This document shows, piece by piece, positions 34,601 to 40,600 of a stretch of 52,790 bases of DNA (position 1 is the first letter of the stretch; each line of letters begins with the position of its first letter). Made by a program: the position numbers. Origin of the DNA: a virus (lineage: Duplodnaviria; Heunggongvirae; Uroviricota; Caudoviricetes); IMG/VR virus record IMGVR_UViG_2534681742_000008, positions 1 through 52,790 of that record; one strand, given 5' to 3'.

Positions 34601-37600
34601 TCAGCAAAATAGCTGACAAGGTAGGTGACAGCCCTCAGAAAATGATGACCGAGCTTGGCAAGCTGCAAAAACAAGCAAATGGTCAGGTGTTTAAAACTGT
34701 ATTTGGTGGGAAGAACGGAAAAGAGATAGAGGGGATGTTATCTATTCTCGATGCTACCAAAAGAGCATCTGAGGCTAATGTTGTGACGAAGACTGGCATG
34801 ACACTCGCGCCTTTGGTAAGGGTTATTGGTAACCTAAAAACCGGAGGCGCGCTATTGGCTGGGGAAACAGGGATTGGCCTTATGTCGAGGGTTTATGAAA
34901 GCCCTATGGCTAGGAATGCGCTCTTACGTCTGGCAAACACTAAAGCTGGAACGCCAGCTTATGAAAGAGCGCTGAATAACGCCGCAAATGCCATCAGACC
35001 AATACTTGCCAATGATGCAACTGATCGCTAAGGGTTGATGTCATGGATGTTGTTAATTGCGAATGGAATCGCGGAACTCTTTGCTTGATAGAAAAGGATC
35101 TGTTCTCCTTAACTCATCATAGTTTTTATTAAACTTTCTTGCTTCACCTGGGTATCTGTTGAACAAAACATTGCAGAAAAAAGAGAGCAATAACTCACAT
35201 ATGAATGCTAATACCCTGAAAAATAAAGGTATAAAAAGAAGGGAAGGTTCATTGAAGTCTCTATTCCAAACAAAATAGACAATCATCCCGACATACCAAA
35301 TTGATATCCCTATACTGATGATTGTTCCAACAGAGGTAACTACGATCCCGATTAAGTCGGACAGTCTGTTTGCCAGTAACTCATTTGAGTATCTTGCAAT
35401 CATATACCGCCAACATTTTGCAATATCATCCTGATCTGTAGAGTCTTCTGGAATAGCTAGGATTCTACATATTGAAGTAGCTCTTTTTTTCTCAACTCTT
35501 TTTGAGAGCCATCCATTAAAGAGATACATCAACACCTGCGTTGCTATTCCTGCACCAAGTGATATCAAAGACATCCCCAAAAATCGCCATCCTGGAGATA
35601 GTGACTGGTACTGCCAAACAAAAAAAATTAAAAAACCCAATGAGCCTATGACATAGGCTGATGTATCGCTATATATATCTATTTTTTTCATTGAGTAGCC
35701 ACTCCTTAGTTTTGAGCAGAACACCGGATGATAATGTTTTGTTATGTGTCTTTTGGGATTCTATCCAGTAACTCGTTGGAAATTTTATCAAGTAAAGATT
35801 TTATTTGTTTAAGATCTAATGATTTGTCTACTGATGAGACGTCATATGATAACGCATCCTCAAGAATTTGAACTATCTCTGAGTTCATAGATCGACCGTT
35901 TCGTTTAGCCCTTTCCGCAATAGCACTACGCATGCCGTCAGGCATTCTAACCGTAAATCTTTCTATGAAATTTGATTCGTCTTTTTCTGACATTTTCTTA
36001 TTCGCAAGGCATATGAGCAATAAAAAACACAGTAGCATCATATTGACATTATGAGCAATGGCATCATAATGGTGTCATGACATCATGGTGATGTCATTAT
36101 GACGGAGATATTGATGATGAGCGATGTTCTTTACAGTGGTCGTAAAAGTCAGAGTTTCCAGCTTCGTTTGCCAGCGCGAATGAAGGAGGAGATTAGACGT
36201 GTTGCTGAAATGGATGGAATTTCTATCAACTCTGCGATTGTGCAGCGACTGGCTAAAAGCCTGAGAGAGGAAAGAGCTAATGCCCAGTAAAAATAGTGAA
36301 GCCCGGCAGTGCGCGAACACAAACCGGGCCTCTATGTCAGTAACCGTATGCAAGGAAACTAACATGAACATTGTAGCAAAATCAGATTATAACTTCCAAG
36401 GATTCACCTTTAACCCTGTAACAGAGGGTGGGTCTATCTGGTTTACCTCCACCGAACTAGCTAAGGCTCTCGGCTATAAAAAAACTGATGCCATCAGCCA
36501 AATTTATGCCCGTAATGCTGACGAGTTTTCCGACTCAATGTCATTGACCCTCAATATGAAGGTCAACGGGATAAACAATAGCTTACGTAACAAATCGGTC
36601 AGAGTTTACTCGCTCCGAGGCGCTCACTTGGTGGCGATGTTTGCTTCTACGCCCAAGGCCAAAGAGTTCCGCCGCTGGGTGCTGGATATTTTGGATCGGC
36701 AGGCAGAATGCTCACCGATTGCAAAACAGTTTACTGACGAAGAGCTGGTTAATCTCTGCTACTTACAATTGTGGATGGAGAAGAGTCAACAAATGTGCAA
36801 ACACATCTACCCAGGAATGAAGCAAATTGGTTCTGAGCTTTCTGGAAGGATTTACGATATTGCATATGAGACTCGCTACATGTCAGAAGAAACCAAGAAA
36901 TCACTTCTTCGTGAAATGAAGAATCTTGATACCAACAATTTTGTCGTAAAGAACGCTCAGCCAATGCTGGCAAAACTGCGCGGCGAGGAATGGATTCATT
37001 GATTGGTGCGCCGGACGGCGCAAAAAGAAAACCGCCAGTGTGCTGCTGGCGGCCTATGTCACACCCTTACTACCACATAAGGAATGCCTAATGACTTTTA
37101 AGAATGTAGCAAACATCGGATCCGTTGTCACGGATAAAACCATTGACAGCCAGCGCCTGCTTGAGATGGTAAATCAGGCTCGTAGACAGTGCGGTGAGCC
37201 GGAGGTTCGTAATAACAAATTCATCGAGAAAATTGAAGATGAATTGGATGGAGAGCACTACACAAAAAGTGTAGTGCAAAAAGCGAACAAAACTTCGATG
37301 GTTATCATTGAGATGTCAATCAAGCAAGCATTGCGAGTTGCCGCTCGCGAGTCAAAAGCCGTTCGCCGCTCACTGGTAGACCAACTTGAAAGTATGCAAG
37401 AAGCGCACATTAAAAGCGGTAAATCAGCGAGTGGACTTGTTGAGTATCGTCAAGCGCGAACATTGAAAATGACGGTTGAAGCTGTTACCAATCTGTTCGA
37501 TCTGATGCCAAATCTTGCGCCGGAAGCAAAGCAGACTGCTGCAGCAAGCATAATCAACCCGCTCGTTGGTTTTAATGCAATACCTCTTCCGGCAATAGAA

Positions 37601-40600
37601 GAGCATTACTACTCAGCAGGGGAGGTTGCAGAGCAGCTTGGAGTAACGGCCAACAAGATTGGTCGCATTGCTAACGCAAACAACCTAAAAACTGAGCAGT
37701 ACGGGAAGTTCTTCCTGGATAAATCGGCGCATTCCAGCAAACAGGTAGAGGCGTTCCGCTACAATTCTGAAGGCGTTAAAGCACTACAACACCTGCTACA
37801 TGGCTCAAATGTGGCGTAACATTTTATAATGAAAACTAAACCCGCTTAATCGCGGGTTTTTTCTTTCCTTAGAATTTCAGCCGCAACTTCTTTTACTCGT
37901 TCCGAGATTAATGAGGCCAGTCTCTCTTCTTCATCACGATACCCGCTTACAGGTGATGGTTTGGAGAGTGATTCTTCCATCGTAGCCACAATTTCGGAAT
38001 TGATAGACCAGTTATTCATTTTTGCACGCTGCTTAATCTTAGCGTGCAACTCGTGCGTAAGCCTCAAGTGGAACTGCGCCTCATCGTATTTGCTGTACAT
38101 CATCAATGCCTCACCAAATGGGTGGAATGGCATCGTAAAACCTACTGTACAAATCAACAATCGTACCGTTTCGGTATGTAACAAATGCCAACCGTAGCCA
38201 CGCTGCGGCGATTCCTTGCATCTGGAGCAAATTAAATGACAGATTCGATAAATGCCAATGTTGTAGTGAGTATGCCTTCTCAACTCTTCACTATGGCACG
38301 TTCTTTTAAAGCGGTTGCCAATGGCAAAATTTATATCGGTAAAATTGACACTGACCCGGTAAATCCTGAAAACCAGATTCAGGTTTATGTGGAGAACGAA
38401 GACGGCTCTCACGTTCCTGTTTCGCAACCAATCATCATTAACGCTGCTGGATATCCGGTATATAACGGACAGATTGCCAAATTCGTTACCGTGCAAGGCC
38501 ATTCTATGGCTGTTTATGATGCGTATGGGGTTCAGCAATTCTATTTCAACAACGTACTTAAATATGACCCAGATCAATTACGCCAGGAGCTGATAGGACC
38601 AAGGGCAGGTATGGCTGGGTTTGTAACAAGGGGACACCTGCTGTCCTCATTGATAACAGACAACACAATCTATCCTGGGCAAGCCTATAGGTGCACTGAT
38701 CGTGCGGATGGGATATTTGATGTGGTAAACAAGTCGTCTGTAACTACAAATGGATACAACATCGTTTCACACCAAACGCTTCCTTATGCATTCGTACTTC
38801 GCATAAACGGAAGAACTGTAGATATTGAGCAAATGGGTGCAAAACCAGATGGTAGCGAGGATATTCTTCCTATTCTAAATGCAGTCACGCAGATGTTTGT
38901 TTCTACTACAGGCGATGCCTATGACGCTGGATGCACCATCCTTTTAAAGGAGAATACTTACCTCTTATCATCATGGACAATGCCATCAATCTTCCAAAAC
39001 CTATCGTTAGTCGGTAACGGAGCAAAGATTAAATGTAAGGCATCAGGAACATACCCTCACCTGATAAAAACAGGATGGAACTTTCAAAACATTTCTGGTG
39101 TTGATATTGATGGAGCACTAAATGAAAACTACACATGCATCCTCAACATAAATAATGGCTATGGCAGGTATGAAAACATCACGATAAGAAACGCGAAGCT
39201 TCCTATTCGCGTTGGATTGCCTGGAACTAACCCTGTTAGCTTGTCTGAGTTCTACTTTGATAGGTTAGTGATAACTGGATGCGCAAAGATAGCTGAATGC
39301 ATTGGTTTATACAGTGTCTTGCAGATTTCAGATAGCGTACTTGCCTCTGGCGAAGGAACGAAATGGAAAAGTTACGATTGCACAGGACTGGCAACTTATG
39401 GAGGAAGGATATTTGTTAACAAGTGCACAATGAACTCAAATGTAGTAACTACGGATAGTCCATACATATATGTATCAAGCACTGTAGAGCAAGGAAATAC
39501 GTACTGTGGTCAAGTAAGCGTTGAGCAGAGCGATCTTGAGATGAGATCAAGAACGATACTTGTATATGACCAATCTACAAACTTCCAGAATACCCAGCAA
39601 AACATCAGGCTATCAAACTCACGTGTTAGCGTGTGGTTATCGCAGGAGCCGAGGGCTAAAACATTCTTCGAATCCAACGATGCATATAGAGGCCTTTTCT
39701 CGGTAACAAACTGTGATGTTATATTCGATCAGCCTTTGACAGAGAGACCAATAAAGGCAGGGAGTAGAACTCTTTGTAAGCTTGATTATTCATCGTTTAA
39801 CCATGTTGGTTATTATGGATCTAATCTTATTGAGTGGAGCGGATTCCCACCAATAGAAGAGTTTTCATTGAAAATGAAAGCCTCAATTACAAACAACCAA
39901 TCACTCGCTATAGGGCAGAACAAAATATCATATGATCAAACATTAAAAGATATCTATGGTACCGATCTCACGCTTAACAAGAAATTCAACGTAGGCCTTA
40001 ATAGATTTGAATGCCCCAATGGTGAAATAGAAAGTGTAGAGCTCGTAGTAAATTATCTATTCTCAGAAGCAGTTACCTCACCAGTTGAATGGAGGATAGA
40101 TGTATTTTTCTCTGGAAGCTCAACAACCACAACGATATGCAAGCACACCACGCCAACAGGTGTAACAGCAGGGTCATTCTGCGTTGCGCTACCAATGATA
40201 GATCAGAACTCTACAATAACAACCTATGCTACAACAAACGCAACCGCAACTCTGTTAGGAGGGAATGTCTTCAATAATACAATATCTTTATTATGTAAAA
40301 CTAAGAGACCAAGAGTGATCAGCTGACATACAATAAAAGGCCGGGAAATCCGGCCTCATATAAACATTACGCAGACTTATACTCTCGTATACGAGAAGTA
40401 AGCATGTCTCGTATATAGTTAGAGAGTCGAATTTCAATATAGTCACGTGAAAAGTGAGCCGTCAAAATGGTAGATGCAATAATCAACACTCCCATAAGCG
40501 GCCCTCCTGCATATTCCTCATGCCCGGACTTTATAAATATTATCTGAAGCATCTCTTTCACAAATGGATGTAAGAGATACACCGAAAAAGATATGCCCCC

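Follow-up and report, generated by a model that had tools for sequence, protein, structure and literature searches.

Why two genes for Mnt-like repressors should flank the antirepressor genes of a single prophage is the question raised by the immI region of the virus record IMGVR_UViG_2534681742_000008. The region analysed (35742-38103, from the mnt1 stop codon to the mnt2 start codon) lies within a stretch of 52,790 nt of this record, referred to below as the window. A first-pass annotation had read it as an expanded immI, in which a duplicated Mnt repressor could exert layered control over an antirepressor apparently split into two open reading frames (ORFs). The present in silico analysis, which is based on gene content, protein domains, control-region homology, covariation of operators and recognition residues, purifying selection and prevalence, leads to a different interpretation. 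With a probability of roughly 0.75, the region is a compound "ant moron" of an Escherichia coli P22-like (Lederbergvirus-type) prophage, formed from a complete, working-looking P22-type immI (module 1, 35742-37859) and an orphan Mnt cassette (module 2, 37846-38190). The locus is an ordinary, common mosaic of known parts and contains neither a split antirepressor nor a repressor duplication.

The ORF listing and direct reading of positions 35400-38500 confirmed five genes at the coordinates first assigned to them: mnt1, arc, ant1, orf4 and mnt2. They are located inside the late operon, between a homologue of gene 16 (33199-35031) and the tailspike gene (38236-40326), and the products of mnt1, arc and mnt2 all match the Pfam family Arc (PF03869). 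This part of the P22-like genome was named the "ant moron" by Villafane et al. (2008), who distinguished ten types of it in sixteen genomes and described it as highly variable (PMC2629481).

As judged from its sequence, the left part of the region is a faithful P22-type immI. The mnt1 gene (35742-35993, minus strand) occupies the canonical mnt position, as initially proposed, and is divergent from arc. It encodes an 83-residue ribbon-helix-helix (RHH) repressor with a C-terminal helical extension, which matches Pfam Arc with E 1.6e-17 as well as phrog_1287, phrog_3178 and phrog_795, and which is 32% identical to P22 Mnt; its recognition strand reads ERFTVRMP (PHFNFRMP in P22 Mnt). The Pfam family Repressor_Mnt (PF11423), representing the C-terminal tetramerisation domain, was not reported for Mnt1 even at E <= 10. 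The arc gene (36114 or 36117 to 36290, plus strand), the first gene of the operon, is preceded by the Shine-Dalgarno (SD) sequence GGAG (36104-36107) and encodes an Arc-like RHH protein of 57 or 58 residues (Pfam Arc, E 1.1e-11; recognition strand QSFQLRLP). The Prokaryotic Genome Annotation Pipeline (PGAP) places its start, in the closest genome, at the position equivalent to 36117.

Two promoters, overlapping face to face, are predicted between these divergent genes. Pant1 (TTGACA-16-CATAAT, 36043-36070, plus strand) scores 11/12 and is the best promoter-like site in 35000-38400, and Pmnt1 (ATGCCA-16-TATGAT, 36064->36037, minus strand) scores 9/12 in the consensus scan. The position of Pant1 is that of P22 Pant, and the relatives described below as type B also carry a TTGACA promoter there. 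The predicted Mnt1 operator is a perfect 21-bp palindrome, ATGACATCA-TGG-TGATGTCAT (36077-36097, in full ATGACATCATGGTGATGTCAT), which starts 7 nt past the -10 element and covers the +1 of Pant1. A second, imperfect copy with two mismatches (36058-36078) overlaps the -10 element. Together, the copies with 0 and 2 mismatches amount to two, with 0.02 expected by chance.

The pairing of this palindrome with Mnt1 is derived from two types of loci. Type A loci, including the window, combine the Mnt1 strand ERFTVRMP with the palindrome ATGACATCATGGTGATGTCAT, and type B loci combine the strand DRFNIRLP with a different palindrome, TTGGTTCTAGAACCAA, at the same position; the Arc strand, QSFQLRLP in type A, is identical in type B. 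Because the palindrome switches with the Mnt1 strand while Arc stays the same, the site at +1 is assigned to Mnt1. In the control regions of both types alike, AATGG motifs 11 bp apart flank the -10 element of Pant1, and the Arc site is probably this common pair, AATGG-N6-AAT(T)GG, around -10. The imperfect copy at 36058-36078 could be either a second Mnt1 site or a part of the Arc site.

The next gene of the operon, ant1 (36364-37002, plus strand), encodes a protein of 212 residues which, by its domain content, is a complete antirepressor. Bro-N (residues 19-109, Pfam E 1.3e-10) and P22AR_C (residues 121-188, E 2e-13) are found in one chain, the match to phrog_245 "anti-repressor Ant" reaches E 4.4e-50, and the C-terminal part is 29% identical to residues 206-274 of P22 Ant. 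The C-terminal P22_AR_C domain is present in both antirepressors; the difference concerns the N-terminal domain, which is Bro-N in Ant1 and P22_AR_N in the 300-residue P22 protein. A gene for a sar-like antisense RNA (sar1, 36290-36399, minus strand) is predicted at the start of ant1, with its promoter in the first ant1 codons and a hairpin plus U-run at its end. The promoter scan identified TTGGAA-18-TACAAT with TG (extended -10) at 36399->36370, and its offset from the ant1 ATG is that of P22 Psar. The predicted RNA of about 70 nt (about 36363->36293) would span the ribosome-binding site and start codon of ant1, and folds with -33.3 kcal/mol (z -5.7) into a 5' stem-loop and a terminator hairpin, the same shape as P22 sar. 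The sar-like region at ant1 aligns with the arc-sar-ant region of P22.

The following gene, orf4 (37091-37819, plus strand, 242 residues), had been taken for the detached C-terminal part of the antirepressor. The split was rejected: Ant1 holds both domains, and Orf4 is unlike P22 Ant and matches a family of its own end to end. Residues 1-242 of Orf4 cover the complete phrog_1726 "anti-repressor" (1-264 of 264, E 7e-101), and a pairwise comparison with P22 Ant revealed no similarity. No Pfam match at threshold, Rha, ORF6N, KilA-N and ANT/KilAC included, was obtained for Orf4 and 20 of its homologues, and the PDB sequence search and relaxed Pfam scans gave nothing usable for Orf4. Its homologues comprise 2109 protein clusters. 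For the 120 best matches listed, the lengths are about 240-250 residues and the sources are enterobacteria, among them E. coli, Salmonella, Serratia, Morganella and Proteus. The AlphaFold (AF2) model of Orf4, which is of moderate confidence (predicted local distance difference test 69.7, predicted template modelling (TM) score 0.34), consists of a beta-alpha-alpha-beta-beta-alpha N-domain and a winged helix-turn-helix (HTH) C-domain. In Foldseek it matches viral antirepressor C-terminal domain, KilAC, KilA and Rha proteins with E 3.6e-10 to 1e-4 at low TM-scores, and the C-domain weakly matches HTH proteins of the MerR/RacA/excisionase type in the PDB (E > 0.08). Within the IMG/VR loci (numbered here with the prefix L), orf4 occurs without ant1 in L078 and L079 and behind a P22-type ant in L023. 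According to these comparisons, Orf4 is no fragment of Ant but represents, at full length, a widespread family of its own, possibly with a Rha/KilAC-like fold; ant1 and orf4 appear as a tandem pair of different antirepressor-class genes.

A second sar-like antisense cassette (sar2, 37020-37131, minus strand) is predicted against orf4. Its promoter, GTGACA-17-TACATT with TG (37131->37103), is located in the first orf4 codons, and its minus-strand terminator, GCCGCCAG...CTGGCGG followed by a U-run (37055->37020), just upstream of the gene. The hairpin, the -35 and the -10 accompany orf4 regardless of the upstream neighbour and are kept in homologues that are 64% identical. Downstream, about half of the relatives (many IMG/VR loci and JEP4, L001, at 5532-5753) possess a 73-residue ORF without a Pfam match between orf4 and mnt2, which is missing in the window between 37819 and 37838.

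The second Mnt-like gene, mnt2 (37846-38103, minus strand), is situated, as first described, between the antirepressor genes and the tailspike gene; it is convergent with ant1 and orf4 and divergent from the tailspike gene. It possesses a good SD sequence, GGTGAGG (38109-38115), spaced 5 nt from the ATG, and the promoter predicted for it is conserved. Its stop codon sits within the stem of a bidirectional intrinsic terminator (37838-37859, both strands, terminator scan), which would serve the convergent orf4 and mnt2 transcripts. The 85-residue RHH protein matches Pfam Arc (E 1.6e-13) and, over its full length, phrog_795, the P22 Mnt family (E 1.3e-31), with 43.8% identity to P22 Mnt over residues 7-79. 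Mnt2 is closer to P22 Mnt than Mnt1 is (39% vs 32% identity), and the C-terminal linker is common to Mnt2 and P22 Mnt (SKPSPVSGYRDEEERLA vs SKPSPVTGYRNDAERLA), in line with the C-terminal similarity that the first-pass annotation had noticed.

The alignment of the two Mnt-like proteins, suggested by the same annotation as a check, yields the recognition strand AQFHLRLT for Mnt2, which is different from those of Mnt1 and P22 Mnt given above. The claim of two repressors with different predicted specificity is upheld in this respect; the claim of a duplication is not, and the region is a mosaic of two modules. Because Mnt1 and Mnt2 are 42% identical over 38 residues only, the term "paralog" overstates their relationship. 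By homology, mnt2 is an orphan mnt like those of phages L/ST64T, Sf101, IME10 and VSe13, and not a recent duplicate of mnt1.

The control region of mnt2 (38104-38190, minus strand) is best described as a relic of a P22-type Pmnt/Pant region. The 132-bp intergenic region between mnt2 and the tailspike gene aligns with the mnt-arc intergenic region of P22 and with the mnt-gene 9 intergenic region of phage L. In this alignment, the -35 TTGACA of P22 Pant corresponds to ATGGCA in the window (38127-38132, rightward; the full decayed Pant relic is ATGGCA-15-TACAAA), the -10 and -35 of P22 Pmnt to TACGAT (38137->38132) and TTGTTG (38160->38155), and P22 Omnt, GGTCCACGGTGGACC, to GTACCGTTTCGGTAT (38163-38177). 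The promoter Pmnt2 is predicted on the minus strand from this positional homology. The predicted Mnt2 operator, TACCG-TTT-CGGTA (TACC-N5-GGTA, 38164-38176), is placed directly upstream of the Pmnt2 -35, in the position of P22 Omnt. When 11 diverse relatives are compared, no block of the intergenic region is invariant other than the SD, the -10, the CAAT of the -35 and TACC-N5-GGTA.

The operator and the recognition residues vary together. TACC-N5-GGTA is intact or altered by one substitution in every relative of the Q-H-R class (AQFHLRL) examined, the operator is GACC-N5-GGTC in the Q-N-R class (phage L and L076-L080), and it is GTCC-N5-GGAC for P22 Mnt (H-N-R). The site stays palindromic throughout, and its changes are symmetric and in step with the recognition residues. 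The loci L076-L080 are natural chimeras, in which a phage-L-type N-terminal RHH domain is joined to a Mnt2-type C-terminal half; their operator is L-type (AGACCACTGTGGTCT), and the operator type hence tracks the N-terminal domain.

In the proposed operator search, the predicted Mnt1 palindrome was detected at Pant1, and the predicted Mnt2 operator upstream of the tailspike gene and not at Pant1. The 52.8-kb window contains one exact copy of the Mnt2-type operator, and the single match with one mismatch, at 11355, is within chance expectation. An action of Mnt2 on Pant1 or elsewhere in the prophage was rejected for want of a second exact copy in the window. A 13-nt likeness between the Pant1 region and the region upstream of mnt2 (AATGGCATCATAA and AATGGCATCGTAA) was likewise dismissed, being of a size expected by chance in 2.6 kb. 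Between the tailspike gene and the Mnt2 operator, candidates for a rightward promoter are limited to the weak, non-conserved sites TCGTAA-17-AACAAT and ATGGCA-15-TACAAA, which were rejected as evidence.

In IMG/VR, the exact operator pattern was listed at 119 or more loci. At 110 of the 119 listed, the operator adjoins a mnt2-type or tailspike gene, and the other 9 match by chance; an operator scan of genome contigs gave 4 loci. None of the 110 true operator-bearing loci listed has arc-ant behind TACC-N5-GGTA, an absence that is not conclusive given the exact pattern. No canonical mnt(Q-H-R)-arc-ant module was present in the phage records, in 80 IMG/VR loci fetched using Mnt2, or in the 119 operator-pattern loci listed. 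The most economical reading, and the most likely one, is that Mnt2 is a self-regulating orphan repressor.

The distribution of the region is that of a common element. Among 5426 complete E. coli genomes, 29 contain at least 80% of 35742-38103, and 175 contain parts of it. Of the 80 fetched IMG/VR loci, 25 show the order of the window, mnt1-arc-ant1-(orf4)-mnt2; about 22 show the JEP4/HS order, with an S24/HTH repressor and a 57-residue RHH-like protein at the left, and about 27 have only mnt2 between gene 16 and the tailspike gene. Altogether, three different sets of regulators are found to the left of mnt2, which also occurs without any, and mnt2-type genes are retained in many phages without any ant. 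With the 29 complete genomes, the 25 loci of identical order and the right half already known from the E. coli HS prophage (HS-1, PMC2629481), the gene order largely proves to be a standard arrangement of a described subgroup. PGAP labels the genes "Arc family DNA-binding protein" (three times), "P22AR C-terminal domain-containing protein" and "hypothetical protein".

The mnt2 gene is directly divergent from the tailspike gene in 78 of the 80 loci and also in 107 of the 119 operator-pattern loci listed. The exceptions among the 80 are L056, with no tailspike match in the fetched stretch, and L070 (UViG_2713897197_000002), in which the last 110 codons of a P22-type ant (residues 191-300, 93% identity, 414-743) are preserved between the mnt2-type and tailspike genes. 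Because L070 keeps this ant relic, the orphan mnt2 cassette would once have had an arc-ant partner. The same direct divergence of a mnt-type gene from the tailspike gene, uninterrupted by arc or ant, is also found in L/ST64T/ST104 (49% identity to Mnt2), Sf101 and IME10 (61-63%), VSe13 (94%) and JEP4 (96.5%). In L016, L029, L044, L083 and JEP4, an insert of 300-660 bp separates mnt2 from the tailspike gene.

Some of these arrangements have been described before. The mnt-only ant moron of ST64T/ST104 and the HS-1 type were reported or diagrammed by Villafane et al. (2008) (PMC2629481), and the authors of the phage L paper weighed a new function against remnant status for the orphan mnt (PMC8022706). 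No description of the double-Mnt order or of the second antisense cassette was found in the literature searched. With regard to phage L, the present data lean to function, because the tailspike-adjacent mnt is under strong purifying selection. The ratio of nonsynonymous to synonymous substitution rates (dN/dS) of the Mnt2 N-domain is 0.02-0.07 in five comparisons and 0.12 in the sixth, at dS of 0.4-1.6, and all 85 of the 85 Q-H-R-class mnt2 copies examined are intact ORFs.

From these data we infer the pairing of each protein with its site, transcription of mnt2 and of the sar RNAs, the activity of the antirepressors, and any role of Mnt2 beyond self-regulation. The two modules would work as follows. 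In the lysogen, Mnt1 made from Pmnt1 would bind the 21-bp palindrome at the Pant1 start and keep the arc-ant1-orf4 operon off. Upon infection or loss of Mnt1, Pant1 would fire, and Arc would then shut it down. Two short antisense RNAs would curb translation, sar1 that of ant1 and sar2 that of orf4, and Ant1 and Orf4 would presumably inactivate C2-type repressors, possibly different ones. Module 2, composed of mnt2 with its own promoter and its own operator, is probably the remainder of a second canonical mnt-arc-ant module that has lost arc and ant. The most likely binding site of Mnt2 is TACC-N5-GGTA just upstream of the mnt2 promoter, where the repressor would regulate itself and leave Pant1 unaffected.

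Other explanations of the locus have to be set against this one. The initial model, in which duplicated Mnt repressors jointly control the antirepressor operon and the antirepressor consists of a Bro-N ORF and a C-terminal ORF, draws on two observations: Mnt-like genes with different recognition strands do flank the antirepressor genes, and the predicted KilAC-like winged HTH at the C-terminus of Orf4 is a domain often fused to Bro-N in other antirepressors. However, Ant1 already carries its own C-terminal P22AR_C, Orf4 represents a family conserved at full length, has a predicted antisense cassette of its own and occurs without ant1, and the limited identity of Mnt1 and Mnt2 speaks against duplication. 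Layered control of ant is likewise unsupported, in that the Mnt2-type operator occurs once in the window, beside the promoter of mnt2 itself, and is absent from the Pant1 region, and in that mnt2 goes with three different left regulator sets or none and is kept in phages without ant. This model is considered very improbable. A better, though still poor, chance is given to the proposal that the mnt2 cassette, as what remains of a degraded immI, has no function left and is drifting to loss. The disappearance of arc and ant, the decay of the Pant relic and the unique R32W substitution in the Mnt2 of the window (see below) would agree with drift. It is contradicted by a DNA-binding N-domain that is nearly invariant with synonymous sites close to saturation, by the restriction of the invariant intergenic blocks to SD, -10, -35 and operator, by the preserved palindrome with its symmetric changes, and by the intact ORFs of the whole Q-H-R class.

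Two further proposals assign Mnt2 a task outside its own promoter. P22 Mnt represses the ant promoter of a superinfecting phage and in this way protects the prophage, a role in immunity reportedly described by Susskind in 1980 (cited in PMC2629481). If Mnt2 did likewise, it would be an immunity factor acting in trans on superinfecting phages that possess the cognate operator, shielding the prophage from antirepressor-mediated induction. This would account both for a binding specificity strongly conserved although the cognate arc-ant is gone and for the retention of mnt2 in phages without ant. The anti-immunity against a related phage envisaged by the first-pass annotation is kept in this form, but its target was not found: arc-ant was behind the operator in 0 of the 110 IMG/VR loci listed, and in none of the Q-H-R-class phage records, although with an exact pattern this absence is not conclusive. 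The trans-acting role is regarded as unlikely. Less likely still is a control of transcription into the tailspike gene, with Mnt2 either as a roadblock to read-through from Pant1 or Plate, or as a protein silencing a weak rightward promoter located at the operator. About 60 bp separate the operator from the tailspike start downstream, mnt2 adjoins the tailspike gene in about 190 loci listed, and the P22 moron is thought to influence late transcription reaching gene 9, possibly with participation of Mnt and Arc (PMC2629481). Yet no convincing rightward sigma-70 promoter is present, and the adjacency is equally explained by the history of deletions. Moreover, antiterminated late transcription is not normally halted by a bound repressor. 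A broader view would combine these elements: the tailspike-linked Mnt cassette would be a conserved functional unit of many P22-like phages with a job independent of arc and ant, be it the level of tailspike transcription or trans-immunity against unsampled phages, next to an immI variant deploying two unrelated antirepressors, each gated by its own sar-type RNA. We hold this view only tentatively, as a possibility with the odds against it.

Several observations weigh against the compound-moron interpretation itself or against its parts. The number of promoter-like sites in the region is not above chance (6 found vs 7.5 expected in the consensus scan); what identifies the predicted promoters is positional homology and conservation. 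Pmnt2 (TTGTTG-17-TACGAT) is weak and was not called by the promoter scan. The Rfam scan of 35000-38500 at E <= 1 reported no sar family, only RyhB, symR and isrK at a sub-threshold level expected by chance. The sar2 fold is barely better than shuffled sequences (z -2.0) and unimpressive by itself; the case for sar2 rests on conservation and on the parallel with sar. The loss of arc-ant is derived from one relic-bearing locus and sequence homology, not from a reconstructed phylogeny. In the closest genome (L007, E. coli strain numer 3), PGAP flags the mnt1 counterpart at 3600-3752 as a partial pseudogene lacking its C-terminus, although tblastn gives 99% identity to the Mnt1 of the window. Neither Mnt1 nor Mnt2 yields PF11423 at E <= 10, with HMMER filters dropping most matches above about 0.1. 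The scores for this family are 72.9 bits for P22 Mnt, 52.7 bits for the Sf101-type homologue and 14.3 bits, below the cut-off, for phage L Mnt. As PF11423 is undetected, Mnt1 and Mnt2 are referred to as Mnt-like and not as members of that family.

The last point concerns the individual Mnt2 copy of the window, which has a unique tryptophan at position 32 (NNWS), where 86 of 86 other loci have arginine (NNRS). The substitution (R32W) is located in codon 32 (38008-38010) and represents a single CGG->TGG-type change at a position conserved in Arc/Mnt proteins. This copy may be impaired by it. A hydrophobic residue is not necessarily fatal there, because the Arc protein of the window has isoleucine at the equivalent position. 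A role of mnt2 as the antitoxin of a toxin-antitoxin pair was also considered and rejected, no co-directional partner gene being present.

Compared with P22 immI, module 1 agrees in its location between gene 16/sieA and the tailspike gene, in a mnt-like and an arc-like RHH gene that diverge from predicted promoters overlapping face to face, in a palindromic operator at the Pant +1, in the predicted antisense RNA with matching promoter position, two-hairpin fold and recognisable sequence similarity, and in the P22AR_C domain of the antirepressor. The differences relate, apart from the Bro-N domain of Ant1, to the addition of orf4 with its own sar-like cassette after ant1, to operators and recognition residues that are not those of P22, and to the second mnt-type cassette between the operon and the tailspike gene. 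That cassette resembles the orphan mnt of L/ST64T/ST104, Sf101, IME10 and VSe13 in having a mnt-type gene that diverges directly from the tailspike gene without arc or ant in the interval, and in the homologous intergenic control region; in phage L, terminators are annotated on both strands at the mnt 3' end, as at 37838-37859. In contrast to those phages, where gene 16 or a small ORF precedes the cassette, a complete immI module precedes it in the window, and the Mnt of L/ST64T belongs to the Q-N-R class (GACC-N5-GGTC) whereas Mnt2 belongs to the Q-H-R class (TACC-N5-GGTA). The HS-1 type (E. coli HS prophage and JEP4) shares the right half, ant1-orf4-(73-residue ORF)-mnt2-tailspike, at 76-100% protein identity, but its left pair consists of an S24-peptidase/HTH C2-like repressor and a 57-residue RHH-like protein in place of Mnt1 and Arc, and in the HS prophage orf4 is interrupted by an IS3 element.

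For the general picture little changes, as the interval between gene 16 and the tailspike gene of P22-like phages was already known as the hypervariable ant moron. The region does supply a natural series of RHH recognition residues and operator half-sites (H-N-R with GTCC, Q-N-R with GACC, Q-H-R with TACC, and the R-T-R and R-N-R variants for Mnt1), which could guide work on the recognition code of Arc and Mnt. The antirepressor-class family to which orf4 belongs is uncharacterised, and the second sar-like cassette predicted before the gene offers a starting point for experiments on that family.

The modules of the region also occur in other surroundings. The ant1 DNA (36362-37053) is 95% identical to a gene of the Salmonella phages SPN3UB, S107 and S135, whose genomes of about 47-50 kb are larger than P22-like ones, and orf4 with the 3' part of mnt2 (36981-38043) is 93% identical to Klebsiella phage phiKp_30. 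It follows that these modules pass between phage types and host genera. At the right edge of the moron, the gene-9 leader (CCGTAGCCACGCTGCGG...GGAGCAAATTAA, 38191-38235, plus strand) is 98% identical to the sequence preceding the tailspike gene of P22, L, ST64T and others. The motif CCGTAGCCACGCT(G/T)(C/A)GG is repeated where modules meet ahead of the tailspike gene, namely at 38191-38207 in the window, at 16043-16066 and 16160-16185 in P22 (L003), and in L082; in P22 and L082 it is duplicated around an insert of about 110 bp. Recombination in the ant moron may take place preferentially at this motif.

The neighbouring genes complete the P22-like layout. At the left edge of the moron, the gene-16 homologue precedes a sieA-like membrane protein gene (35053-35691, minus strand), which matches phrog_7745 "superinfection exclusion SieA-like" (E 5.9e-20) and occupies the position of sieA in P22. 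The tailspike gene (plus strand) forms the right edge and encodes 696 residues, of which residues 4-114 represent the conserved P22-type head-binding domain (Pfam Head_binding PF09008, E 1.9e-64); the part beyond it matches no Pfam family. Convergent with the tailspike gene, an acyltransferase gene (Pfam Acyl_transf_3, 40367-41536, minus strand) stands where P22 has the gtr O-antigen-conversion genes, and in Sf101 an annotated O-acyltransferase adjoins the tail gene in the same position.

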